Source: Tubiluchus corallicola
Taxonomy: Eukaryota > Animalia > Priapulida
Length of the DNA: 56,156 nucleotides
Direction: 5' to 3'
NCBI GenBank assembly: GCA_030141605.1
Contig: JAQGDQ010002419.1
Span: forward strand, 1-56,156
In this document: positions 1 through 37,681 of the stretch, piece by piece
How the letters are laid out: each line of letters starts with the position of its first letter
Position numbering within the stretch: the first letter of the stretch is position 1
The notes under the pieces: model-generated
What the model was told of the DNA's origin: nothing
Seen by the model: the letters and a program-made list of their open reading frames with translations, nothing else
The model's database searches: none
Program-made: the position numbers and the translations under genes

Positions 1-299
1 ACATAACCTACACAAGATACTTTTCCCTCTTCGTTTACAAGTAGACGAAACAAAAATTTTTCTTTTTTCCTTTTTTTATATTTATAGGCAAATAAAAGTG
101 TTTCTAATTCCTGATTAATATAGTTAATAGAAGTTTTCAGTTTAGGTAATTGAGTTGGAACCGAAAGTGTTTCTTCCCCTTCTGATAGATGCTTAAGCAA
201 ATTACAATCATTACTATCATTATTAAAATAGTAGTATGTTTTTTGTGAAAAGAGGTTGATGCTATTAGATAATATGAGAATGAGCACTAATTTTTTCAT
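1..299 (-). CDS. Partial (runs off window edge) secreted hypothetical protein, probable orphan immunity protein
   Basis: Read manually: ATG at 299, MKKLVLILILSNSINLFSQKTYYYF...FRLLVNEEGKVSCVGY, open to position 1. Signal-peptide-like N-terminus; lies directly after the orphan toxin remnant. Not in the ORF track. Confidence 0.6.
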   Translation of the reverse strand, partial: MKKLVLILILSNSINLFSQKTYYYFNNDSNDCNLLKHLSEGEETLSVPTQLPKLKTSINYINQELETLLFAYKYKKRKKEKFLFRLLVNEEGKVSCVGY

Positions 300-318
300 T
301 AATTTATAGTTTTTGATT

Positions 319-632
319 TCACCATTTCCATCTATAATTTTAAGAGCATCTGCTGGGTCTATTGAGCTAAATGGACCCACAGAAATATTTATTCCATCAC
401 CAGTAGCGGAAGAGCGTCCCCACCAATCATCTTTTGTAGATGCAGAATTTACATTAACTTCTGTTCCACTAAAACCAGTCACTATATCTTGTAAATTTGC
501 TAACCCTCCAAAGAAATACCCCCGGTTTTGTAGTTTAGAATTCCCCAACTTACCGAAGTATCCTCATTCACCCTGACTGAAATTGTAAGAACCAAAGCCC
601 AAACTCATTGAAAAATCCGTTTGCCCTCCACT
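319..632 (-). pseudogene. Orphan Rhs toxin C-terminal fragment (decayed)
   Basis: Close copy of 3398-3714 in the Rhs gene (SGGQTDFSMSLGFGSYNFSQGE...DALKIIDGNG). Has TGG->TGA stop at 564-566, W->R, and H->R in the WWGHSS motif; truncated before the Cys motif. Confidence 0.85.
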
Positions 633-711: not shown

Positions 712-1227
712 TTATTTGAATTTAATTTCTTTCTCACGTGAAGGAAAAATAATGAATAGACCATCATTACTAATTGTTACTACTATAGCTCCATAAAGAC
801 GCTTATCTGTTATAGCGTTAAATTTTTTTATATTTCTCTTTGAAGGATAAGTAAGTTTTGTCTTTTCCGGTAAAAGCCTATTTACAAAATCTTCATTGGG
901 ACTAATGTAAAATTCTTTGTTCTCTTCTATAATATTTAAGAAACTTCCTTGATAAATAACACCTTTCTTTATAAGGGTGTCTTGTGTTAGATATTTATCC
1001 GATTTTATATAAAAAAGATAATAAACAAAAAAAGTATCATTTGAATGTTCTACAACATAATACGTCGGAAAAAAAGAACGACACTTGACAAAATAATGAC
1101 TTGTATCCGTAAGATATATTTTGTCTATTTCTATATATCTATTGTTTTGGCTAAAACAATCGTATCCAAATAAATGTAAAAAGATAAATAACTTAATAAT
1201 TGATAATAGGTGCTGCATACATTCCAA
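712..1227 (-). CDS. Putative immunity protein, copy 1 (allele A)
   Basis: 171 aa, signal-peptide-like N-terminus, paralogue of the gene overlapping the toxin end; unique C-terminus GAIVVTISNDGLFIIFPSREKEIKFK. Confidence 0.75.
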   Translation of the reverse strand: MECMQHLLSIIKLFIFLHLFGYDCFSQNNRYIEIDKIYLTDTSHYFVKCRSFFPTYYVVEHSNDTFFVYYLFYIKSDKYLTQDTLIKKGVIYQGSFLNIIEENKEFYISPNEDFVNRLLPEKTKLTYPSKRNIKKFNAITDKRLYGAIVVTISNDGLFIIFPSREKEIKFK

Positions 1228-1359
1228 TTTGTCTTGTTAATAATTGAAGATTTAAAAATAATTACCTCCACTATTAATATCCTAATACACCTCTAATATA
1301 TAAAATATTAGTAGAAACTCTTATTATACATTGTATTATTTTTAATTATTTATTTGAAT

Positions 1360-1863
1360 TTAAATACTTTCACGTAAACAATAAATAAAGAATCGACCAT
1401 CATTACTAGTTTTTACTGCTATAGTTCCATAAAGACGCTTATCTGTCATAGCGTTAAATCTTTTTATATTTCTCTTTGAAGGATAAGTAAGTTTTGTCTT
1501 TTCCGGTAAAAAGCTATTTACAAAATCTTCATTGGGACTAATGTAAAATTCTTTGTTCTCTTCTATAATATTTAAGAAACTTCCTTGATAAATAACACCT
1601 TTCTTTATAAGGGTGTCTTGTGTTAGATATTTATCCGATTTTATATAAAAAAGATAATAAACAAAAAAAGTATCATTTGAATGTTCTACAACATAATACG
1701 TCGGAAAAAAAGAACGACACTTGACAAAATAATGACTTGTATCCGTAAGATATATTTTGTCTATTTCTATATATCTATTGTTTTGGCTAAAACAATCGTA
1801 TCCAAATAAATGTAAAAAGATAAATAACTTAATAATTGATAATAGGTGCTGCATACATTCCAA
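1360..1863 (-). CDS. Putative immunity protein, copy 2 (A/B chimera, C-terminal 2-nt deletion)
   Basis: Same as copy 3 except for a 2-nt deletion near 1370 that changes REKVFKFK to RESI*. Confidence 0.72.
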   Translation of the reverse strand: MECMQHLLSIIKLFIFLHLFGYDCFSQNNRYIEIDKIYLTDTSHYFVKCRSFFPTYYVVEHSNDTFFVYYLFYIKSDKYLTQDTLIKKGVIYQGSFLNIIEENKEFYISPNEDFVNSFLPEKTKLTYPSKRNIKRFNAMTDKRLYGTIAVKTSNDGRFFIYCLRESI

Positions 1864-1987
1864 TTTGTCTTGTTAATAATTGAAGATTTAAAAATAATTA
1901 CCTCCACTATTAATATCCTAATACACCTCTAATATATAAAATATTAGTAGAAACTCTTATTATACATTGCATATTATTTTTAATTAT

Positions 1988-2503
1988 TTATTTGAATTTA
2001 AATACTTTCTCACGTAAACAATAAATAAAGAATCGACCATCATTACTAGTTTTTACTGCTATAGTTCCATAAAGACGCTTATCTGTCATAGCGTTAAATC
2101 TTTTTATATTTCTCTTTGAAGGATAAGTAAGTTTTGTCTTTTCCGGTAAAAAGCTATTTACAAAATCTTCATTGGGACTAATGTAAAATTCTTTGTTCTC
2201 TTCTATAATATTTAAGAAACTTCCTTGATAAATAACACCTTTCTTTATAAGGGTGTCTTGTGTTAGATATTTATCCGATTTTATATAAAAAAGATAATAA
2301 ACAAAAAAAGTATCATTTGAATGTTCTACAACATAATACGTCGGAAAAAAAGAACGACACTTGACAAAATAATGACTTGTATCCGTAAGATATATTTTGT
2401 CTATTTCTATATATCTATTGTTTTGGCTAAAACAATCGTATCCAAATAAATGTAAAAAGATAAATAACTTAATAATTGATAATAGGTGCTGCATACATTC
2501 CAA
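1988..2503 (-). CDS. Putative immunity protein, copy 3 (A/B chimera)
   Basis: N-terminal variable patches match copy 1; C-terminal patches match copy 4. Confidence 0.75.
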   Translation of the reverse strand: MECMQHLLSIIKLFIFLHLFGYDCFSQNNRYIEIDKIYLTDTSHYFVKCRSFFPTYYVVEHSNDTFFVYYLFYIKSDKYLTQDTLIKKGVIYQGSFLNIIEENKEFYISPNEDFVNSFLPEKTKLTYPSKRNIKRFNAMTDKRLYGTIAVKTSNDGRFFIYCLREKVFKFK

Positions 2504-2627
2504 TTTGTCTTGTTAATAATTGAAGATTTAAAAATAATTACCTCCACTATTAATATCCTAATACACCTCTAATATATAAAATATTAGTAGAAACTCTTAT
2601 TATACATTGCATATTATTTTTAATTAT

Positions 2628-3143
2628 TTATTTGAATTTAAATACTTTCTGACGTAAACAATAAATAAAGAATCGACCATCATTACTAGTTTTTACTGCT
2701 ATAGTTCCATAAAGACGCTTATCTGTCATAGCGTTAAATCTTTTTATATTTCTCTTTGAAGGATAAGTAAGTTTTGTCTTTTCCGGTAAAAAGCTATTTA
2801 CAAAATCTTCATTAGGACTAATGTAAAATTCTTTGTTCTCTTCTATAATATTTAAGAAACTTCCTTGATAAATAACACCTTTCTTTATAAGGGTGTCTTG
2901 TGTTAGATATTTATCCCAAAATAAATTATAAAAATAATAAACAAAAAAAGTATCATTTGAATGTTCTACAACATAATACCTTGGAAAAAGCATAGGACAC
3001 TTGACAAAATAATGACTTGTATCCGTAAGATATATTTTGTCTATTTCTATATATCTATTGTTTTGGCTAAAACAATCGTATCCAAATAAATGTAAAAAGA
3101 TAAATAACTTAATAATTGATAATAGGTGCTGCATACATTCCAA
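2628..3143 (-). CDS. Putative cognate immunity protein, copy 4 (allele B)
   Basis: Overlaps the 3' end of the Rhs toxin gene, the usual toxin-immunity coupling; unique patches CPMLFPRY and YFYNLFWDK. True start may be the ATG at 3134. Confidence 0.8.
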   Translation of the reverse strand: MECMQHLLSIIKLFIFLHLFGYDCFSQNNRYIEIDKIYLTDTSHYFVKCPMLFPRYYVVEHSNDTFFVYYFYNLFWDKYLTQDTLIKKGVIYQGSFLNIIEENKEFYISPNEDFVNSFLPEKTKLTYPSKRNIKRFNAMTDKRLYGTIAVKTSNDGRFFIYCLRQKVFKFK

Positions 3144-6100
3144 TTTGTCTTGTTAATAATTGAAGGTTTAAAATATGGGGATGAAGATTAAGGGGAAGTG
3201 TTGGTACTCCTACTGACCATAATGACCTTGAAACGTGATTAACACAACTAAATCCCAGTGCATTCCATTTTAATTCACCAACACCCCATAATCCATCTCC
3301 TAATTGTATATTATTAGTCATTTTCTGCATCATTTTAGAATTGACGTTTTGTAATTTTATCACCCAAGTTCCATCATTATTTGGAAAGTTAGGATAATCA
3401 CCATTTCCATCTATAATTTTAAGAGCATCTGATGGGCTCTCTATTGGGGAAGCTGGACCCACAGAAATATTTATTCCATCACCAGTAGCGGAAGAGTGTC
3501 CCCACCAATCATCTTCTGTAGATTCAGAATTTACATTAACTTCTGTTCCACTAAAACCAGTCACCATATCTTGTAAATTTGTTAACCCTCCAAAGAAATA
3601 CCCCCAGTTTTGTAGTTTAGAATTCCCCGACTTACCGAAGTATCCCCATTCACCCTGACTGAAATTGTAAGAACCAAAGCCCAAACTCATTGAAAAATCC
3701 GTTTGCCCTCCACTCAACAAATGATTACCTCCACTATTTATGCTAGAACCACCCGCAATAGCCAAAGTATTCGCAAAAGGAATGCCACTACCTGCTATAG
3801 CTGCTCCTGTCACCGCACTTGCTCCTCCTATTATATACCCAAACATTTCCCAACCTTTAGCATCATTAGCCTCTCCTATCTTGTAGCCACTATATCCTCC
3901 TATTATTGCTCCTACAACGGCTGCTGCTAAAAATATCCACTCCCCATCAGGATCTACAAACATCATAGGGCTATTGCCCATAGCTTGGTAAGGTGAGTGC
4001 ATCTGCAAAGCAGGATCTACTGCAAACCACCTTCCCAAATTAGCATCGTACTGTCGTGCGTGAAAATCGTGCAAGTTAATATTAAAATACTCCAAATGCT
4101 CCTTGCCCGTGTAGAGGTATTGGCTTTTTACATTATCAGGTAGTTCATTTCTACTTAGTTTCTCTATCGTTTGTCCATAAGGGTAGTAAGCCGTTTCTTG
4201 TAGCACCTCGCCCTTGTTGTCAGCAACTACTCGTGTATGCCCCAAGTGGTCGGTGAGTAACACTGCCTTTGTGTCCTCTTCCTCACCCTTCAAGGTATAG
4301 CCTAAAGGGTTACTCACAAGTACAAGCGTATCATTAATATACAGATACGCACCTTGATAATCGTATTTTAGCAAGAGGCTATCGTTTTTGTTAAATATCT
4401 CACGTCTTAAAAGTGAGCCATCCGCTATGTAGGTGTTTACTATCTTTCCTTTGCCTACTACCTCCATTGTATCAGGTAGGTTGATGTCGTTGTAGCTAAT
4501 ACGTAGTCCCTTGTAGCTATCCTCCACCAAGTTACCCAACTCATCATAAGTATAAGTGCCTAGCACTTCTTCGGGTGTTTGGTCTTTTTCATCGTGCGTT
4601 CTGCGTAGGTTCTCTTGTATGGCAAGGGTGTCTTTTAGGTCTATAATGCCGTCACCATCCGCATCCATATAGCTAAACTGTGGGGTACTGGTAATAGTTG
4701 TGTAGGGCTTCCACTCCGTGCCTTGCTCATCTTCGTCCCTTGGGGTGGCTGTGCTTCCATAGTGCAAGCCCAATGGCAATATGTCGGCTGGCTCTACTAA
4801 GCCGCTATTGTCCATATCACCCGGATATACTGTTATCTTTTGCAGGCTTTTACGGTGTAGAGTGGTGAGTTGGTTGCCCGTGTATTCATACTCCAAATCA
4901 TCCAAGTCGCCATACACTTCATTACGTAGATGTCCCTTGCGGTGTAGGGTAGTAATGTTCCCGTGTTTGTCGTAAGAGTAAGCTGTGTTGTAAGTGTTCT
5001 CCTCTTTTGTGTCTTGGTAGTAGATAGCTCTTGTCAGTTGGTTAGCATCGTCATAAGAGAAGGCATAGCCTGATAGGGGTGTGTTTTTGGTCTTCCACTC
5101 CATAGCTGTAATGTTGCCGTTGTACATAGGGGTGTTGCTCATATACTCGTGAGGCTCGTCATACTCTATCCTTTCGTAAAAAAGCTGTTCGTTTTTGTCG
5201 TTGTTAGTTTCTATTTGGGTAAGGCGGTAGTGGAAGTCGTAATGGTAGTTTGTTCTTATTTGTCCTTCATACAGTCGTTCATAGCTTTTGTTGCCTTTTT
5301 CATCGTAGCGGTAATAGGCTATTTCATAGGTGTTTTTGTCTCCCTGCTCTTGGTAGTGGATGGATTTCAACATGTCGTTGTGGTAGTATTGGTAATCCTT
5401 ACGTGCAAAGTGTTGCTTGTCAAAGTCTAAGAAGTTTTTGTAGGTAAATAGTTGTCTTACTCTGCCATCGAAATGGTAGTTGGTAAATACTGCGTCTATT
5501 CCGCCTATGTTGTTGGAGGAGAAGGATTGTACTACTCTGTTGTATTTGTCGTAGTATATTACGCTTTCTATCCATTGGTCGGTGCCAAGTATGCGGGTTC
5601 GTGTGCCTGTTACTTGTGTCTTTACGTTGTGATAGGGCTTGCCAAGGGGTTCGTAGGGTGGTGCTGACTGTGCAAAGGGGAAGTCGTAGTCGTCGTAGTG
5701 GGTTTCTGATAGGGGTATCTTTTTTCCGTCTTTTTTTATGCCTGTGGCTATTACGCGGCTGTAGCGGTCGTAGTCTATGTAGGAGGTGTTGCCTTCTGTG
5801 TCTTCTTCTTCTATCAGTCTGTCTAAGTGGTCGTAGCTAAGGTGTATGGTACCTGCTTGTGGTATGTGTTTGCGGATAAGGCGTCCTTTTTTGTCGTGGA
5901 TGAATTGATAGACGTAATGGTGATTGTTGATATCTCCTTTGGATAGTGGGGGGAGTATGGCGGTAAGGTTGCCATAGTGAAAGTCGTAGTAGTAGAGTGT
6001 GGTTAGGGTTTCTTTGTTTATCTGGCTTTCTCTTTTGAATAGTTGACCTTTGTATGAGGTGTATGTGGTGTGTTGTATGCCTTGAGGGTCGGTGGTACTG

Positions 6101-6663
6101 ACTATGCTTATGTAGCCGGGGGGGTATTTTTTGTCTTCGTATTTTTCGGTGAATGCGTCATATTCTTTGTGTAGGAAGATGTCGGTGTTGGCGTAGCGTT
6201 CAATTTTGGTAGTGTGGTTTGTGCCTATTTGGTATTTCTGTCCAAAGCCACCTTGTTCTATTACTTGACCGCGTGGGTTGAATATGCTTTGTGCGCTGGG
6301 TATGTCTGTGTGGGCTTGGTTTAGTATGTTTTCCCAGTTGTGTAGGTAGTCGCCTTTGATGTTGAGTTGCATTGGCATATAGCTAAAGGGTTGTCTGCCT
6401 GCTATGTCGTATTTATGAAATTCTATGTGGTCGTTTTGGTAGATGGAGGCGTTCAGGTGGTTGGTTTGTAGGGGGCGGTCGGCTCCATCGGTGTAGATAA
6501 TGGTGGTTGAGGCTGCTGCTGGGTTGGTGGTATTGCTTAGCTCATAGGCACTCATCCCTGATACTTTTGCTCGTTTTATGCGCACGTAGTTTTGGTCTCG
6601 GCTCTGCGGGTACAGAACGCTGCACAAGTGCAGAAAGGCCAAGAGTAAAGCAATGGGTCTCAT
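3109..6663 (-). CDS. Rhs-repeat core toxin (DUF6443-like N-terminus, YD repeats, dockerin-like insert, His/Cys toxin tip)
   Basis: Signal peptide; YxDGxxRPLQ N-terminal motif; YNGNI motif; core motifs LTDHLGHTRVV, YYPYG, YLYTGKE, ARQYDANLGRWFAVDP and PYQAMGNSPMMFVDPDG cleavage signature; Gly/Ala-rich hydrophobic segment followed by a variable C-terminus. Confidence 0.93.
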   Translation of the reverse strand: MRPIALLLAFLHLCSVLYPQSRDQNYVRIKRAKVSGMSAYELSNTTNPAAASTTIIYTDGADRPLQTNHLNASIYQNDHIEFHKYDIAGRQPFSYMPMQLNIKGDYLHNWENILNQAHTDIPSAQSIFNPRGQVIEQGGFGQKYQIGTNHTTKIERYANTDIFLHKEYDAFTEKYEDKKYPPGYISIVSTTDPQGIQHTTYTSYKGQLFKRESQINKETLTTLYYYDFHYGNLTAILPPLSKGDINNHHYVYQFIHDKKGRLIRKHIPQAGTIHLSYDHLDRLIEEEDTEGNTSYIDYDRYSRVIATGIKKDGKKIPLSETHYDDYDFPFAQSAPPYEPLGKPYHNVKTQVTGTRTRILGTDQWIESVIYYDKYNRVVQSFSSNNIGGIDAVFTNYHFDGRVRQLFTYKNFLDFDKQHFARKDYQYYHNDMLKSIHYQEQGDKNTYEIAYYRYDEKGNKSYERLYEGQIRTNYHYDFHYRLTQIETNNDKNEQLFYERIEYDEPHEYMSNTPMYNGNITAMEWKTKNTPLSGYAFSYDDANQLTRAIYYQDTKEENTYNTAYSYDKHGNITTLHRKGHLRNEVYGDLDDLEYEYTGNQLTTLHRKSLQKITVYPGDMDNSGLVEPADILPLGLHYGSTATPRDEDEQGTEWKPYTTITSTPQFSYMDADGDGIIDLKDTLAIQENLRRTHDEKDQTPEEVLGTYTYDELGNLVEDSYKGLRISYNDINLPDTMEVVGKGKIVNTYIADGSLLRREIFNKNDSLLLKYDYQGAYLYINDTLVLVSNPLGYTLKGEEEDTKAVLLTDHLGHTRVVADNKGEVLQETAYYPYGQTIEKLSRNELPDNVKSQYLYTGKEHLEYFNINLHDFHARQYDANLGRWFAVDPALQMHSPYQAMGNSPMMFVDPDGEWIFLAAAVVGAIIGGYSGYKIGEANDAKGWEMFGYIIGGASAVTGAAIAGSGIPFANTLAIAGGSSINSGGNHLLSGGQTDFSMSLGFGSYNFSQGEWGYFGKSGNSKLQNWGYFFGGLTNLQDMVTGFSGTEVNVNSESTEDDWWGHSSATGDGINISVGPASPIESPSDALKIIDGNGDYPNFPNNDGTWVIKLQNVNSKMMQKMTNNIQLGDGLWGVGELKWNALGFSCVNHVSRSLWSVGVPTLPLNLHPHILNLQLLTRQIGMYAAPIINY
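4593..4836 (-). other. Dockerin-like domain inserted in the Rhs core
   Basis: VYPGDMDNSGLVEPADILPLGLHYG...YMDADGDGIIDLKDTLAIQENL: two DxDxxGxxxxxD Ca-binding loops each followed by a helix, between the conserved GNQL and YTYDxxGN core motifs. Confidence 0.75.
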
Positions 6664-6679: not shown

Positions 6680-8947
6680 TTATTTAACTCTCATTATAAA
6701 GGCTAATACGTAGTAGGGAGGTATAATATCAAAATTATCAGTAGTTACTTTGTCTGCTGGCGATTTTAACCCGTCCTCTCCTCCATTGCTTACTCTACCA
6801 CTAAAAGAACTATTCGGGTGGGTGTGTCTATCTTCATTATTCTCAGATGTAGTAGTAGCATCTCTGGTTTCATGAACTCCTCTATCAGAGCTCCTGCTAC
6901 CTCCTGTCTTTCTATTAGATGGAGTGGATTCATAAGTATGTGTATGACTCCCTGAAGAGGTTATATGTATACTTGCGTCATTGCCTCTTACAGAATGATG
7001 ATGTTTAGGAATATGATTCTTAGATAATCTAAATGTAGCTGTAGAGCTACTGCTGCCTCCTTCTGCATTCACATTGTTATAATCACCACTGGCAGCATCA
7101 TACGCCACAATAAACCTACCACTTAAGTTGGGGGTCGTTATGAGTGAACCATTAATATCCGTGTCTGTTCTACCATCACACAAAGCCCACCCATCAGGTA
7201 TAGTATTAGGGTCTCCGCTCCACATTATAATGCCTCCTATGGGTATGGTGCCGTAGCCTACAAATTGTCCTTGTGTTTCAATATTGTCTTCTGCTATTAT
7301 TTTGCCTTCTGTGGCAATATCATTGGCAGTTTGTATGCTTTCTACAAAAAGGGTATCTACTTCTACATTGGAAGATATTACTCCATCTACCCTTACTACT
7401 TCACTTACTATTAATGTATCAGCAATAATGCTACTTGTTTCTAAGTTTTCTACTTTCACATAGTTTTGTTCAAAGTCGCCCTCTATGAGTGTGTTGGTTC
7501 CACTGCCTATCATTAGTTTGTTGCTTTCGTTATTTAGGTTCTGCCCTACTTTGTTACCTATTACTATGTTGTTGTAGCCATTGTTCCCTTGTGCTGCTTT
7601 GTCTCCTATGTATATATTGCTACCACCTGTTGTATTGCTTTTGCCTGCTTCGTTGCCAATAAACACATTGCCACTAGCCGACAAGCTATTTAGCCCTGCA
7701 CGGTAGCCTATAGCTATGTTGTCATTGTTGGAAGTAGCATCTGGGTTTATACCTTGCAGTGCCTCTGTGCCAATAACTACATTTCGCTCTCCACTGCTTT
7801 TTTCGGCTGCTTTGCTACCTATCACCACACTATAATTGTTTGCTCCTTCTCGACTAGCGTATTTTCCTATGACTACTGCACCTGTGCTGTTTTTTGCTTT
7901 GGATGCTTTACTACCTACAATTACATTATCAGAGGATAGTGTATATTTCCCTGCCTCGTCGCCTACAATTACATTGTGTGAGCCAGCGGAATTTAATTGC
8001 CCTGCCTCTGTACCTATCATTACATTAGAGGTAGAGGCTTGTGTGGTGTTTTGTCCTGCTCTTTTACCTACAAAGGTGTTGCGTTCGCCTTGTTCTCCAC
8101 TGTTAATCTTTTCTGAGCCTATCAATACGTTGGTAGTATCTATCTCTATACTGCCTGCTATCATATCTTCTAAGGCTTGATTGTTGAGACGGTAAGGCTC
8201 GTTCCACGCTCCATAAGTAGTATCGCCATTTATATCTATTTCTATAAGGCGCAACTTTGCCCATAGGTCGCCTTCCTTTCGTTCTAAGGTCCAATTAGAA
8301 GTAGCCGCACTATCAGGAGCATACATCTTTTCAACTGAGCAAGGGTCTATGGTTACCTCCAATTTACCATCCACTATTTGCAGTGTATTACCCAATACTA
8401 CGCCTCCTCTGGTGCTATGGCTAGCAATAGGTAGTTCATAATAGTTGGCATTGTTTTCTACCGAAAGTAGTTTGGCCAACAAACTATCAGCAAAGTTATT
8501 GTCCGAGTATGTAGCACGATGCTCTATGCCTAGTAGCTTTTGATAGAGGCTATCTATAAAGTTATGCTCAGTGTAGTTCAGACTGTCTAACTTGATTTTA
8601 AGAACGTAAGTAAAATTTTCTTCGGAGTACTTAATACTGTCTAACTTTTCTTTGTGAGAAGTTGTGAAGTTGTGGTCGGTTTGTGAGGTGGCTCTTAGGT
8701 AGATAACACCTTCGCCTTGTTGCCCTTGATAGATTTCTAATCCATCCTCGCCTTCTGCTTTTATCTCATAATTGTAGGTAGCATTGATAAGGTCTTTAAA
8801 ATCCTGTCCATTGGGTTTACTACCATCTTGAAACTTGGAGTGTAATTCACTGGGGGTTTTTCTCTCTATTTGAGAATAAGCAGTGGTGTTAAGGAACACA
8901 AAAGCAATAGCAACTGCAAAAAATTTCACTGTATTTTTCATTATCAA
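6680..8947 (-). CDS. Secreted tail-fibre-like / trimeric adhesin protein with phage tail-collar-like C-terminus
   Basis: Signal peptide; N-terminal ELHSKFQDGSKPNGQDFKDLIN; four NF..KL repeats ending ANYYELPIASHSTRGGV; about 14 YadA-head-like NxxIGxxAG repeats; collar motif IPIGGIIMWSG..IPDGWALCDG..TPNLSGRFIV and terminal PPYYVLAFIMRV. Confidence 0.8.
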   Translation of the reverse strand: MIMKNTVKFFAVAIAFVFLNTTAYSQIERKTPSELHSKFQDGSKPNGQDFKDLINATYNYEIKAEGEDGLEIYQGQQGEGVIYLRATSQTDHNFTTSHKEKLDSIKYSEENFTYVLKIKLDSLNYTEHNFIDSLYQKLLGIEHRATYSDNNFADSLLAKLLSVENNANYYELPIASHSTRGGVVLGNTLQIVDGKLEVTIDPCSVEKMYAPDSAATSNWTLERKEGDLWAKLRLIEIDINGDTTYGAWNEPYRLNNQALEDMIAGSIEIDTTNVLIGSEKINSGEQGERNTFVGKRAGQNTTQASTSNVMIGTEAGQLNSAGSHNVIVGDEAGKYTLSSDNVIVGSKASKAKNSTGAVVIGKYASREGANNYSVVIGSKAAEKSSGERNVVIGTEALQGINPDATSNNDNIAIGYRAGLNSLSASGNVFIGNEAGKSNTTGGSNIYIGDKAAQGNNGYNNIVIGNKVGQNLNNESNKLMIGSGTNTLIEGDFEQNYVKVENLETSSIIADTLIVSEVVRVDGVISSNVEVDTLFVESIQTANDIATEGKIIAEDNIETQGQFVGYGTIPIGGIIMWSGDPNTIPDGWALCDGRTDTDINGSLITTPNLSGRFIVAYDAASGDYNNVNAEGGSSSSTATFRLSKNHIPKHHHSVRGNDASIHITSSGSHTHTYESTPSNRKTGGSRSSDRGVHETRDATTTSENNEDRHTHPNSSFSGRVSNGGEDGLKSPADKVTTDNFDIIPPYYVLAFIMRVK

Positions 8948-8986
8948 ATTCTGTTTTATTGGTGTATATTTATATTTTTTTCATTT

Positions 8987-11900
8987 TCAATTCTCTGTTA
9001 CATATCTTATATGAAAAGTAGTGGCAGTATCGTTTCTAATATACATTTGTCCTATTCCTAACTCTTCTATGTCCAAAGGGTCGTAGGAGGCTTTGTAGTT
9101 ATACTGATATTGTTCCAGAGCGTCTTCATCTTCGTTTCCTATGTTCGAAAGTCTACCAAAATCGTCATAACCATATTTTATAGTCTGCTCTTGTGAAGAA
9201 ACTTCTTGTTGCAGTTGTAGTAGGTTGGTGTATGCATAATTAGAAACATACTTACCTGCATCTACAGAGTGTGTTTTGGGTAGATTACTCGAGGTGTAAG
9301 AATAGGAAATAGGCACGGCATCTTTACCAGTATATTTCAGTATGTTGCCTTTGTTGTCGTATTGGTTGAAGGTGGTTTGTAACTCATAATTATCTGCAAG
9401 GGTATTGTAAGTTTCTATGCTTTCTACAATGTAGTCAGGGTCTTCATTGCTTCCTAATACATAGTTGATTTTTTGTCCTGATAGGAGTTTCCCGTTTTTT
9501 CTTATCTCTTGCTGTACTGGGGCAATAATATGCTTGTCCTCAAAGTATTGTTTTATAGGCTGATTGCTCTGATGCACATAAGTAATAGAAGTTTCTGTGG
9601 TCTCTACATTATCACTGGCAATTACTTTTACAGGTAGGTTTTTGTATTTACTGTATTTTTCATATTCATAGGTGGTAGTGGTAGTGATAGGCTGCCTTGC
9701 ACTTTCGGCATAATCTTCGCGAATAGTCCCTTCCAAAGTTTTAGTAACTGCAGCTATATCATAGGTGCTATGACGTAAAAGATTATCATTTTTATCTATC
9801 TGTACATTGTAGCCTCCAACAGAGTTGCTCCATTTTAAACTATAATTGTTAGAAGTTTTATTGAGTAAGTTATCTTTATTGTCATAAGTTTCTTGTTGAT
9901 AGAGATAAGTCCTATACACATCTCTGTCTGTAATGGTAGAAAAAAGCAGGTAGTAAGAACTAGAAGGATCTTGGCCTGCTATTACATCAGGTTTATTGTC
10001 TTCATCTTTGGCTGTTTTAAAGTAAGAAATAGTTTTGCCTTGTTCTTTGTTTGTCTGCATTACCTTGCCAAAACCTACTATACCCCCGCCTGTGGCTAAC
10101 TGTTCGCCTCCGCCCTTAGGATAAAGTAAATAATGATAATAGTCCCAAAAACGTCCAACCTCATACTTTCTATTTCTGTTGAAAGGTATAATACCTTCCT
10201 CATAGTTATAAGTTATTTCTTCCATTACCTCTCCTTTTTCGTCATCCGTAGCTTTTATATTTTTTATAAAACAACCATATTCACTAGTATAGTAGTCGAA
10301 GGTTTTGTGCATTCCTGTAGGGTAGGTAATGGAGGAAAGCAAACCATTCTCTATATTGTTAAGCGAAGGGGCATAATTATATTCTTCGTACTCGTTTATA
10401 CCCTCGAATTTTACTCTTAACATTTCCTTTAACGATGATGAATATTCTATATTCCGTTCTTCATTTTTTTCATTGCTGTCTATATCTAGCTCACTGGGGT
10501 ATGTAAAGTTGTAAAAAGTAGATTTAGGACTTGTAAAATCTACATAGTAACCATAAAAATTCTGTTTGTAAGAAAGTCTATAAGGTAGTTTACTAGGGTT
10601 AATGTAATTAAATTTAAAAGGATTGATATTATCTCCATAGATGTCTTTCTCCTCTATTTCTGTAAGGAACATCCTTTGTGTAGTACCTGCTTGTTCTATA
10701 AAGAAACTACCACTGTGCCATGCATTTGTTTTAAAACGAAATGCAGGCGAGGAGGTAGTAACAGAATTATGATAATTATAAGTAAATGTATAGCTTTTAA
10801 TAAAATCATCATCTTTCGTTTTTATACGTATTTCTCTAAGAAAACTACCTACCTCATCTATCATATCTTTTCTGTTTTCTACTGTAAAGAATTCTACTTT
10901 GTGGTTGCCTCCTTCTACCTCTTGCAACATAGGGGTATGGGCTGTAACCAAACTTTTAGCAATTCCTATTTCATTACGAGGAACTGGGGACTCATATCTG
11001 TAAAACTTATTATCCTCTATTTTGGGATAAGAATTCTGAATACAAACACCTGACAGCCTACTGCCTTGATAATACCGACTTGTTTGTTTTTTATAAGAAA
11101 AGGTTACTTTATCATTAAAAGCAGGTTGTATTATCTCTATTAAATGCCAAGAGGACCTATAACTATACGATTGACTACTATTGATTACACGTTTTTCCTG
11201 CAAATCCAAAGAATAAGCGGGAATTTTCTTGATTACTATCCCCAGAAAATTTCTCTTCCAAATTTCCTCAAACTTTGAAGTATAACGTACAATTTCACTT
11301 GTATTTTCTATTTCCATCTCTTCTATGGCTTCTTCTTCATAGCCAAATCTGTAAATAGTGCCATCTTCGGCAGTAATAGTAAAGCCATTAATGGTTGAAG
11401 AAGAAGCATCCATCTCTATTTTCAGGTTGTTATCGTTGGCAAGAATATTAATTCTGTTAGAAGCGGCTCTTCTGCTAATAGTGAATTTACCGTTTAAGTT
11501 GCCACAAGAAAAATAAAATATATCAGGGTGGAGATCGTTATCTTTCATTTCTTCGACTGATGCCCAATTATCCCAATAGCCTATCTTTTCTTTTGTTTCA
11601 TTTTTACTATCTACTACACCGTCATTATTATCTTCAATAATAGATTTTACTTGGGTTGTTTTCTCATCGGGGTAGCCTTTTACTACACGAGTAATCACTC
11701 CGCTTGCTTGTAAGTTCCATCCCATACCTACCCAAGAAGCTAGGTCATCTACTCTTACTCCGTTGGAATGATACACCAAGCTAATGGGCACGGATAGGTG
11801 GGTACTTTTCAGGGTGTACAAAGGAATGCCTACATTAATAGCTCCTGTGTAAAGGCTAGAGGCGGTAGAGGCAGAACGTATCAGCCCTGCTACTGTGGGT

Positions 11901-12160
11901 GAGGGTACAGTAACCAAACTACTACTACCAGACAAGGCTCCGAACTCGTCACTGCTCATTGAAGTAGGAACACCTTTATGTAAGGATTTTAACATCAAAT
12001 GACTGGTAGTATCTTCTTCTGCTGCTGTATCTTCCTGTTCAGCTGGAAGATAGGGCTGGGCAGAAGTCAAGCTAAAAGAGAAAAGAAAAAAGAAAAAAAC
12101 ACTCTTTCCTCTCCCATAGATACAAAATAAAGACAAAAATATAAATGCAAGTGTTTTCAT
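8987..12160 (-). CDS. YD-repeat protein, N-terminal half of a split Rhs/TcB-like shell
   Basis: Signal peptide; PSPTVAGL..SLYTGAINVGIPLY..PISLVYHSNGVRV..ASWVGMGWNL..GVITRVVKGYPDE; PDIFYF; LSSITYPTG; terminal YGYDDFGRL. Confidence 0.85.
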   Translation of the reverse strand: MKTLAFIFLSLFCIYGRGKSVFFFFLFSFSLTSAQPYLPAEQEDTAAEEDTTSHLMLKSLHKGVPTSMSSDEFGALSGSSSLVTVPSPTVAGLIRSASTASSLYTGAINVGIPLYTLKSTHLSVPISLVYHSNGVRVDDLASWVGMGWNLQASGVITRVVKGYPDEKTTQVKSIIEDNNDGVVDSKNETKEKIGYWDNWASVEEMKDNDLHPDIFYFSCGNLNGKFTISRRAASNRINILANDNNLKIEMDASSSTINGFTITAEDGTIYRFGYEEEAIEEMEIENTSEIVRYTSKFEEIWKRNFLGIVIKKIPAYSLDLQEKRVINSSQSYSYRSSWHLIEIIQPAFNDKVTFSYKKQTSRYYQGSRLSGVCIQNSYPKIEDNKFYRYESPVPRNEIGIAKSLVTAHTPMLQEVEGGNHKVEFFTVENRKDMIDEVGSFLREIRIKTKDDDFIKSYTFTYNYHNSVTTSSPAFRFKTNAWHSGSFFIEQAGTTQRMFLTEIEEKDIYGDNINPFKFNYINPSKLPYRLSYKQNFYGYYVDFTSPKSTFYNFTYPSELDIDSNEKNEERNIEYSSSLKEMLRVKFEGINEYEEYNYAPSLNNIENGLLSSITYPTGMHKTFDYYTSEYGCFIKNIKATDDEKGEVMEEITYNYEEGIIPFNRNRKYEVGRFWDYYHYLLYPKGGGEQLATGGGIVGFGKVMQTNKEQGKTISYFKTAKDEDNKPDVIAGQDPSSSYYLLFSTITDRDVYRTYLYQQETYDNKDNLLNKTSNNYSLKWSNSVGGYNVQIDKNDNLLRHSTYDIAAVTKTLEGTIREDYAESARQPITTTTTYEYEKYSKYKNLPVKVIASDNVETTETSITYVHQSNQPIKQYFEDKHIIAPVQQEIRKNGKLLSGQKINYVLGSNEDPDYIVESIETYNTLADNYELQTTFNQYDNKGNILKYTGKDAVPISYSYTSSNLPKTHSVDAGKYVSNYAYTNLLQLQQEVSSQEQTIKYGYDDFGRLSNIGNEDEDALEQYQYNYKASYDPLDIEELGIGQMYIRNDTATTFHIRYVTEN

Positions 12161-12173
12161 TTGTTAAAACCTC

Positions 12174-12948
12174 TTAGTTTAAGATAATTTTCTTACTGAC
12201 AATAAAATCATTATAGACCGTTTGTATCAAATAAATACCTTTGGGAAGAAAAGATAAATCAAAAGTAGCTATATCTTTTTTGGGTACGGTGGTTCGCACC
12301 ACAGACCCCTCCTCTCATTGCTCTAACTTCTACTATCTCTTTTTCTACCCCGTATTCATATTTGATATTTACAATACCATTTGTAGGGTTAGGATAAAGT
12401 ATAAATTGATATAGCTCAGTGTTTTTCGAAAGGTGTTTCAAAGAATATTCGCCTATGTAAATAGTATCGGAAGTAGAAAGAAGAGGAATGGCTTCTCCTT
12501 TGTGATTGTTTGCCATATAAGGATGAGCAGACACAGAGATAAAGTCCTTGGTTAAACCCTCTTTTATCTTTACAAAAAGAGAGAGTACATTTTCTTTACT
12601 GTCTAAAAAAAAGTTCTCATTCAAACCTGTAACAGCATAACGCAGCAGCCCTTCACTTTGATTTTGTTGATATAGGTCAATATAATCCTTGCCTCGCTCT
12701 CCAAAAGTGCTGCCTGTGGAAAGTGCAATAGAATTAGTGTCCAAGTCCTGTGGGTTATAACGAATGTCAAAAGCTATACCATAAAGAAGTTCTATATTAT
12801 CTTGAGGGTAGAAATTAAAAACCACCACCTCATCCAAACGCTCACGAGATAAAACAGGAGTAGGAGTTTCTACTTTTAGCAGCTCTTGCGAGAAAACAGA
12901 ACAATTTAATAGAAAGAAAGATATTAAATTTAAGCAAAATAATCTCAT
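12174..12948 (-). CDS. Cohesin-like protein with T9SS type A C-terminal sorting domain (frameshift at ~12306-12315)
   Basis: Start MRLFCLNLISFFLLNCSVFSQ at 12948. Beta-sandwich with LYGIAFDIRYNPQ..GLLRYAVT..ANNHKGEAIPL, then LYPNPTNGIVNI. The shifted frame continues GSVVRTTVPKKDIATFDLSFLPKGIYLIQ..KKIILN* to 12174. The ORF track gives 12259..13032. Confidence 0.72.
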
Positions 12949-13001
12949 AAGACTAAAAGATTTTAAGAAATTAGGTGTAAAATATCTTAACTTAAAAAAC
13001 A

Positions 13002-35177: not shown

Positions 35178-37681
35178 ATGAGAATTAAGTTATTCTTCTT
35201 CATTGTAATGATTTTATATATATCTAATGGGAAATCACAGACCAATAGTACCCGATTAGAGAATGACTGGGAATTTTTAAAAAGTGACTTAGGAGGTATT
35301 TGGGAAGCAGTTCGTTTACCCAAAGTGCCAAAAACATCCAATACCTCAAAATCATCTTCCCCCGAATCAGTCCCACTTTGGAAGGATGTGAAACTACCTC
35401 ATTGTTTCAACGATTTTGATGCTGTAGACCCTTATACGAACTATTACCAAGGGCCGGGCTGGTATAAGACAACTATACAGATTGACAACCCATATAAAAA
35501 CGGAAGAACACTATTGCACTTTGAAGGAGCTGGGCAAAAAACAGAAATATATATCTATACTACAAAAGTAGGAGAACATATTGGAGGCTATGACGAATGG
35601 ACAATAGATATTACAGAAGCTGTAGAAGAATTTAAAAAACACGAAAGATTTGATAAAGACTATGAAGGGAAAATACCCATTATTATTCGTTGTGATAACT
35701 CCCGCGACTTAGAAATGATACCCTCTGACTTATCCGACTTTAACCTATATGGAGGAATACACCGTTATTTAAACTTGGTATATGTTAATGAAGTAAGTAT
35801 AAAAAACTTAGCCATTAACCCTAGTGTTGATGCACAAAGTAAAAAAAGTCAAGTAAAAATAGAAGGAACATTATACAATCCGCAAAATGTACCAACCAAA
35901 AACATTAAAATAGAAATCCACTCTCCCAATAATAAAAAAATACAAACTATAGACATACCTTCTTCTCAAGTTAAGAACAACACATTTTCAACATCATTTG
36001 TTATAAAAAAACCAAACTTATGGTCGCCTGAAAACCCTAATTTATACCAGTGTGTTGTTAAAATTGAGAACCCAAAAGGAATAGAAGAATATAAAGACAA
36101 TTTTGGGATAAGACATTTTGAGTTTATAGAAAAAGGACCTTTTAAATTAAATGGAGAAAGATTATTGTTGAGAGGAACACATAGGCACGAAGACCACACA
36201 AGTGTTGCTGCTGCTATGACAGAAGAAATGATGCGAGAAGAAATGATAATGATGAAAGAAATGGGAGTTAACTTTATTCGTTTAGGTCATTATCAGCAAT
36301 CAAGAATCATACTCAACCTATGCGATAGCCTTGGAATACTGGTATGGGAAGAAATTCCCTGGTGTAGAGGAGGACTGGGAGGTGAAAAATACCAACAGCA
36401 AGCCAAAAGAATGCTTGTCAATATGATAACACAGCATAAAAACCACCCTTCTGTAATTATTTGGGGGTTAGGAAATGAAAATGACTGGCCTAACGACTTC
36501 CCTGAATTTACTAAAGAAAACTTCGATGAAGAAAAAATACGAACCTTTATGAAAGAGCTGAACGACCTATCCCACAGCTTAGATGATAGCAGAAAAACGG
36601 CTATTCGTCGTTGCACTTTCTGTGCAGATATCGTAGATGTATATTCTCCCTCAATATGGGCAGGATGGTACAGAGGAAAATTTACTGACTACAAAGAAGT
36701 ATCTCGTAAAGAAATAGAAAAGGTAAACCATTTCTTACACGTAGAATGGGGAGCAAGCAATCACGCAAGGAGACACTCTGAAAACCCTGACAAAAATTTA
36801 GAAAATATAAAAACTGGAGAAGCAGATGAACGAGACGGAGACGCTTCCTTGGTTGGAGGAGACCCAAGAGCATCAAAAGATGGAGATTGGTCAGAAACTT
36901 ATGCTTGTAACCTGATAGATTGGCACTTAAAAGAACAAGAAACGATGCCTTGGCTAACAGGAACAGCCTATTGGCCTTTCAAAGACTTTTCCACACCCCT
37001 TCGCCCTGAAAATCCTGTGCCATATGTAAATCAAAAAGGAGTAGTTGAACGAGACCTTACCAAAAAAGAAGCATACTATGTTTTTCAATCCTACTGGACA
37101 GGAAAACCAATGGCACATATTTATGGACATACTTTTAAAACAAGGTGGGGAGAAGCAAACGAAAAAAGTTAATAAAAGTTTATTCAAACTGTGAAGAAGC
37201 AGAATTGATAGTAAACGGCAAAAGCTATGGTAAGAAAAAAAGAAACTCACAAGACTATCCTGCAGCAGGACTAAGGTGGAACGTGCAACTCAAAGAAGGA
37301 CAAAATGAAATAAAAACCATTGGATTCAAAAAAAATAAACCAGTGGCTACCGATAATATAATACAAAATTATCAAACAAATAAATGGGACAAACCATCCA
37401 AACTAGAAATAAGCAAGTATTACAAAGCAGAAAACGAATATTGGATAGAAGTAATAGCTAAAGACAATAAAGATATTCAATGCCTTGATGCTAAAAACTT
37501 TGTAGAGTTCGACATAACTGGAGATGGCACATTACTTGGAAACCTTGGCACATCAACAGGAGCATTAAAAGTGCAGTTATACAATGGGCGAGCCAAAATA
37601 GGCTTAAAACACAAAGAAGGAAAAAGTATAGTTTCTGTAAAGTCCGAAGGATTAAAAACAGTATTTATTAACATCGAATAA
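35178..37681 (+). CDS. GH2 glycoside hydrolase, split by a frameshift at ~37162-37167
   Basis: LLHFEGAGQ, LRGTHRHED, FIRLGHYQQ, WGLGNEND. ORFs 35178-37172 and 37145-37681 join (GEANEKKLIKVYSNC) if one A is added to the A6 run. Confidence 0.88.

Follow-up and report, generated by a model that had tools for sequence, protein, structure and literature searches.

A dockerin-type domain in a shell loop of an Rhs protein, encoded with a candidate cohesin partner that carries a T9SS tag

Dockerins have been found together with Rhs sequences before. In the clostridial scaffoldins ScaO and ScaP, a cohesin, a dockerin and RhsA lie in one polypeptide (PMC6780208; PMC3413522); there, a tandem dockerin is listed ahead of the Rhs part, and the cohesin and a peptidase are on the same chain. 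Separately, many Bacteroidota encode signal-peptide Rhs proteins and other polymorphic toxins without a T9SS tag, and the prior connection to the T9SS was drawn from gene neighbourhood alone (PMC6775972, PMC7073777). In P. gingivalis, a T9SS cargo gene lies upstream of an Rhs gene (PGN_1817/1818), and a link was proposed without a mechanism (PMC6775972); the same holds for the TANFOR toxins, for which a T9SS link was hypothesised (PMC7073777). CTD-bearing proteins with a cohesin and a dockerin have been inferred in Cloacimonadota (PMC8542988). A shell fold made of two halves or of one fused chain, with a variable tip, is described for the TcB-TcC cocoon and for teneurin-like proteins, or TLPs (PDB 6H6E, 9IFO; PMC13018210), the latter predicted to be surface-anchored; PMC13018210 nowhere mentions dockerin, cohesin or T9SS.

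Here, we describe an operon in a stretch of 56,156 nucleotides (the window; contig JAQGDQ010002419.1 of the Tubiluchus corallicola assembly GCA_030141605.1) that shares features with each of these systems. Like PGN_1817/1818 and TANFOR, it places a signal-peptide polymorphic toxin beside a CTD-bearing gene; unlike in those systems, a binding pair can be recognised, with one half on the cargo and the other on the toxin, which points to a candidate interface. It shares the shell fold, the two-part or fused architecture and the variable tip with the TcB-TcC and TLP proteins, but no TcA gene was found among the window's open reading frames, and the anchor that we propose acts in trans. In contrast to the ScaO/ScaP architecture, the dockerin lies inside the Rhs core and the cohesin belongs to a separate T9SS cargo protein. 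The initial annotation of this DNA had called a docking handle within an Rhs core unexpected; PMC6780208 provides a precedent for joining a dockerin to Rhs, whereas the position within the core, together with the split cohesin-CTD partner, is new, although the parts themselves are known. The literature that we searched, subscription journals and supplements apart, describes neither a dockerin within an Rhs core nor this operon. The operon consists of the cohesin-CTD gene, the first shell half, a fibre-like gene, the Rhs gene with the insert, four putative immunity genes in tandem and an orphan tip, in this order:

12174-12948, minus strand: stand-alone cohesin-like domain with a type A T9SS CTD, the predicted partner (cis-cohesin profile; the CTD fragment lies in another frame)
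8987-12160, minus strand: first half of the YD shell (aligns with the N-terminal halves of fused proteins at 25-27% identity, E about 1e-43 to 1e-49)
6680-8947, minus strand: tail-fibre/tail-spike-like protein with a collar domain and a predicted signal peptide, without a CTD (PHROG)
3109-6663, minus strand: Rhs protein, second half of the shell, an intact reading frame of 1184 aa (DUF6443, TIGR03696, shell model)
4591-4836, minus strand: dockerin-like VWPGD module, aa 610-691, interrupting an Rhs shell loop (sequence, profile, fold)
4783-4818, minus strand: predicted calcium loop 1 of the module, aa 616-627, with D1, D3, S5, E9 and D12 (sequence)
4630-4665, minus strand: predicted calcium loop 2 of the module, aa 667-678, with D1, D3, D5, D9 and D12 at canonical spacing (sequence, weak EF-hand matches)
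3112-3942, minus strand: variable C-terminal region after the Rhs core, a putative toxin of an unnamed family (downstream of TIGR03696)
712-3143, minus strand: putative immunity gene, present as four copies in tandem that are 85-99% identical (follows the tip; function assigned from position)
3-548, minus strand: orphan part-copy of the C-terminal tip, reading into another small gene (sequence)

The Rhs reading frame comprises a predicted signal peptide, DUF6443 (E 3.6e-12), a YD shell, the Rhs-associated core TIGR03696 (aa 826-907; 48.5 bits against a cut-off of 32.5) and a variable C-terminal tip. The model of its shell has a mean pLDDT of 84.8, and the closest fold is the TcdB2-TccC3 cocoon (TMq 0.61). 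A YD shell with its core, a variable tip, small genes downstream and an orphan cassette characterise Rhs/YD polymorphic toxins, and all of them are present at this locus. The tip, which varies between insert-bearing relatives, has no PHROG family (3112-3927) and no Pfam family, and its atlas match is an unnamed Bacteroidota cluster (0.92); on the strength of its position we regard it as a putative toxin with no assigned family. The shell halves are split in the window, whereas relatives carry one fused shell-Rhs protein. Immediately before the fused Rhs gene, the intergenic gap repeatedly contains unrelated small genes (L008:4265-4639; L171:1769-2143; L054:2822-4132; L003:891-1577), which we take to be GxxExxY-like genes, IS200-like transposases and a DUF6261-like gene, and their presence suggests an insertion hotspot.

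The fibre-like protein matches PHROG tail proteins (E 1.4e-15) and tail spikes (E 5.4e-14) and is 33-36% identical to its counterpart in Marinifilaceae operons. Such proteins, with phage tail-fibre/spike-like repeats and lengths of 755-1552 aa, were present in every complete operon seen (window 6680-8947, minus strand; L007:902-4825; L001:168-4823). Signal-peptide-like N-termini were recognised by eye on all four operon proteins, and a profile search detected no T9SS CTD on the Rhs, first-shell-half or fibre-like genes of the window. Because it lacks a CTD, the export of the fibre-like protein needs an explanation as well. A PorZ gene lies within the window, and SprA was found in 5 of 5 genomes tested.

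According to the initial annotation, about 80 residues interrupt the normally short loop between GNQL and YTYD in the Rhs core. Alignment with homologues bears this out: the stretch from GNQ to the next YxY is 108 aa long in the window protein and 17-37 aa long in 22 of 22 homologues. In a wider set of 141 Rhs proteins, it spans 22-50 aa in 123 of the 128 that could be parsed and is longer in five. One of the five bears the same insert; the other four were rejected as pattern artefacts that span two repeats. Relatives at about 39% identity have the same insert at the identical site. The two calcium-loop motifs quoted in the annotation were both recovered, at the positions given above. In the shell model the YD sheet reaches a pLDDT near 90 and shell strands flank the insert, which itself has a pLDDT of only 44-54. 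In this model the segment does not form part of the YD sheet, one of the annotation's refuting cases. Since the insert is flanked by well-modelled shell strands, is itself placed with low confidence and folds when modelled alone, we consider it an added domain, which shows that this Rhs shell loop tolerates a folded domain. A lone calcium-loop-like motif was also seen in three insert-less Rhs cores (P0185, P0234 and P0248), just past the DHLG strand, a site that differs from that of the insert.

The poor placement of the insert in the shell model would also accommodate an orientation toward the lumen, in which the domain would hold or chaperone the enclosed tip, or act as a calcium sensor governing its release. 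We regard this as highly unlikely, because the insert is retained while the tips differ between relatives, cargo space would presumably be lost, and the cohesin gene would be left unexplained.

The insert also occurs outside this contig. Contigs from two runs of one sample cross the insert and both junctions, one over 963 nt without differences and the other over 2023 nt. These spanning contigs and the same insert in relatives exclude a misjoin, with the relatives providing the independent support because the sample of the spanning contigs may be the window's own source. In one run (X1), contig depth, which is not equivalent to copy number, is about 3-4 times higher over the Rhs gene (3200-6650) than over the upstream genes (7450-13000), and at 3714, 3830 and 3939 loose contig ends continue into different sequence. 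The pattern hints that one anchor gene serves several dockerin-bearing Rhs copies, nearly identical to one another but with different tips. At about position 12310, a contig of the same run has two extra bases relative to the window that keep the reading frame of the cohesin-CTD gene, and the frameshift in the window's CTD is therefore likely an assembly error or a strain variant. A second break in the window is an apparent frameshift near 37150 in a GH2 glycosidase gene (35178-37681, plus strand). That gene lies within a polysaccharide utilisation locus adjoining the operon (13283-43834, plus strand), which contains two SusC/SusD pairs, two alginate-lyase-family genes, GH88, GH2 and CBM96; no link between this locus and the Rhs operon was found.

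The annotation had likened the insert to dockerin-like VWPGD modules of Bacteroidota secreted proteins. This module of T9SS/FlgD-tagged proteins is an unnamed family defined in the present analysis. A scan of 1.84 billion representatives gave 2093 matches; among the best 150 of these, most match the insert alone, and those are CTD-tagged secreted proteins in which the module mostly lies about 220 or about 335 aa before the C-terminus. A profile built from 126 non-Rhs modules, 119 of which come from proteins with a CTD match, detects the insert with 90-95 bits (E 7e-26) over positions 2-85 of 87, while the top score among 1000 shuffled sequences was 9.2 bits. The likeness to this family is beyond chance.

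Comparison with dockerins in general, which the annotation proposed to make by HMM and by structure, was more graded. Pfam PF00404 (Dockerin_1) aligned to the insert over its full length, but at 14.3 bits (E 0.049) it stayed below the gathering cut-off of 22.9; relatives reach 17-23 bits on the same scale. The insert folded alone (39 alignment rows) with a pLDDT of 96.6 and one helix after each loop. When this fold was compared to 48,161 chains, all 15 matches with Z of at least 2 contained dockerins, although the best Z was low (4.9; rmsd 2.9 over 57 residues). The top Foldseek rows were also dockerins, none under E 1e-3, and dockerin clusters ranked first in the atlas (0.93). Dockerins are recognised by two duplicated calcium-loop/helix segments in which positions 1, 3, 5, 9 and 12 hold acidic or amide side chains; the insert has D-D-S-E-D at these positions in loop 1 and D-D-D-D-D in loop 2. 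D1 and D12 are invariant in both repeats across 11 of 11 Rhs rows, and those of loop 1 are also invariant in 28 of 28 non-Rhs rows. A single-sequence PDB search returned EF-hand loop matches only, for example calmodulin. The EF-hand reading was rejected because 51 residues separate the two loops and the fold resembles that of dockerins.

The module family, the predicted fold and the loop pattern all agree with the dockerin-like reading of the initial annotation, that is to say with a self-folding dockerin-type domain predicted to bind two calcium ions. Like the dockerins of cellulosomal type I/II and non-cellulosomal pairs (PDB 2Y3N, 6KG9, 2CCL, 2OZN; cohesin 4UYP), it has two loop-helix repeats with the D1/D12 spacing, and its predicted fold superposes on theirs with an rmsd of 2.5-2.9 over 48-57 residues. 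It differs from these dockerins in having a longer linker with a conserved Trp and a small sheet, a Gly in helix 1 and asymmetric repeats, in lying in mid-protein rather than at a terminus and below the Pfam cut-off, and in its diderm host with a T9SS tag.

A shared-word homologue search missed the insert-bearing relatives, which were recovered by the profile-free full scan. Eight of the best 150 representatives matched the Rhs flank and the insert together. Insert-bearing loci come from Marinifilum and Ancylomarina, from other Marinifilaceae, from one Bacteroidales MAG and from two metagenome contigs, and the carriers include genomes of cultured strains. In a tree of 50 rows calculated from the flank with the insert left out, all 13 insert-bearing rows fall on one branch (support 100/98), which is consistent with a single origin of the insert in Rhs proteins. 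The clade, mostly Marinifilaceae, is rare: 6 of 97 Marinifilaceae genomes carry it, a targeted search returned 7 long proteins, and no further insert-bearing member was found among the 2 genomes of the family of the MAG G003.

A docking domain implies a partner, and the annotation had alluded to a cohesin-like one. Such a protein is indeed encoded in the same operon, where the upstream reading frame matches a cis-cohesin profile, built from the cohesin that follows the module in ordinary proteins, with E 1.7e-14. The match to Pfam PF00963 is 13.5 bits (cut-off 24.1), and the profile of the cohesin family matches the cellulosomal cohesin PDB 4UYP at E 2.9e-4. With a predicted signal peptide and a C-terminal CTD, the protein is a T9SS type A cargo, the window copy being frameshifted in the CTD. 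The cohesin-like domain follows the module immediately in 80 of the 126 ordinary proteins and is adjacent to it in 86; the remaining 40 modules have no cohesin match. In most of these (P0045, P0048, P0050-P0053, P0056, P0057 and others), a conserved, likely helical segment of about 50 aa comes next, before the CTD, and looks like an unnamed companion domain.

The Marinifilaceae counterparts match the cis-cohesin profile by profile comparison (95.7%); BLAST of the window cohesin against the Marinifilaceae cohesins gave no match at E 1e-3, and the identity of the cohesins across linked operons is only 14-18%. The cohesin-CTD gene comes first in the operon of the window, as it does in 5 of the 6 other genomes with a complete insert-bearing gene. 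Among the 97 genomes of the Marinifilaceae (the family of G001), the insert is present in 6, the cohesin in 6 and both in 5, always in the same operon, and by a broad cohesin profile the cohesin is single-copy and found only there. The order is cohesin-CTD, fibre and fused shell with insert in G001, G004, G005, G006 and G091, with a small unrelated gene interposed in G005. In the sixth cohesin-bearing genome, G068, the contig of the same operon ends before the position of the insert, and at another locus, L054, the contig stops before the expected position of the cohesin. In G003, a MAG, the dockerin-Rhs gene is complete and neither the cohesin nor the fibre gene was found on a contig that ends 1.8 kb upstream; G002 has orphan cassettes only, and the cohesin was not found there. 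A Pfam scan of five genomes, which is less sensitive to the VWPGD module than a dockerin-only profile, gave other dockerin matches, one of them above the cut-off in G004. At Rhs loci without the insert, of which many are too short to include upstream genes, the cohesin occurs in 0 of 118 and another CTD protein in 43 of 118; those inspected at a dozen loci are unrelated to the cohesin-CTD protein. CTD proteins of other families, about 350-450 aa long, lie upstream of insert-less Rhs genes at L038, L042, L050, L059, L064, L076, L083, L095, L112, L127 and L013, and they may act as general adaptors of ordinary Bacteroidota Rhs operons.

By sequence comparison, the linkage of dockerin and cohesin persists across altered gene order, split and fused shells and a cohesin identity of 14-18%. 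Because the insert-bearing clade has one origin, this co-occurrence amounts to a single event, maintained across deep divergence, and not to six. The single origin would equally suit a reading in which the insert is a calcium-stabilised shell patch or assembly domain, or binds the fibre, with the cohesin-CTD gene merely a linked neighbour; so would the absence of a cohesin from about one third of ordinary modules, the failure to detect one in G003, and the fibre gene, which is linked to the insert just as well as the cohesin is. What this reading leaves unexplained is that the operon's CTD protein is of the very cohesin family that normally follows the module, whereas insert-less loci use unrelated CTD proteins, and the fibre protein has no cohesin match. 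We therefore consider it unlikely, and judge direct binding between the insert and the cohesin to be likely from the sequence evidence.

The cohesin might instead serve only as a carrier or cap until the dockerin, as a receptor-binding handle, latches onto surface proteins of other bacteria that bear a cohesin. In favour of this role, CTD proteins widely carry cohesins of this family, with one adjacent in 86 of 126 module-bearing matches. Among the 97 family genomes, though, the cohesin family is confined to the Rhs operon, so that close competitors would mostly lack the receptor, and cohesin-dockerin pairs are usually species-specific, which also speaks against it. This role is, in our estimate, very improbable.

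We favour, as a moderately probable explanation, that the insert binds the operon's own cohesin-like, T9SS-tagged protein and thereby tethers the untagged Rhs capsule. All four operon proteins would enter the periplasm via Sec. Only the cohesin protein bears a CTD, and the dockerin would project from the shell exterior and dock on the cohesin; the complex would then be exported through the T9SS and held at the cell surface; there the tip would be released, and contact with target cells may be made by the fibre-like protein. In the main variant, the capsule would leave by another route and dock after release, and we place co-export by hitchhiking somewhat short of an even chance against such docking after separate release. 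The C-terminus of Rhs proteins is a cleaved, encapsulated cargo. Being cleaved and enclosed, it cannot carry a CTD, and for this reason the usual dockerin-cohesin-CTD tail would have been split in two, with the dockerin moved into a shell loop and the cohesin-CTD part kept as a separate gene. More tentatively still, the whole might be a T9SS-displayed, contact-dependent toxin machine, in which a cohesin-CTD adaptor lets the dockerin-tagged capsule hitchhike and moors it beside a fibre-like targeting protein.

The rarity of the clade limits the general weight of the finding. The clade supplies a named candidate interface, formed by two small domains that lend themselves to expression and direct testing. 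The proposed binding would take cohesin-dockerin pairing beyond enzyme scaffolds into toxin display. Should the T9SS-displayed toxin machine exist, it would provide a first physical mechanism for the delivery of polymorphic toxins by the T9SS, and it would point to an adaptor role also for the unrelated CTD proteins encoded ahead of other Rhs genes in Bacteroidota.
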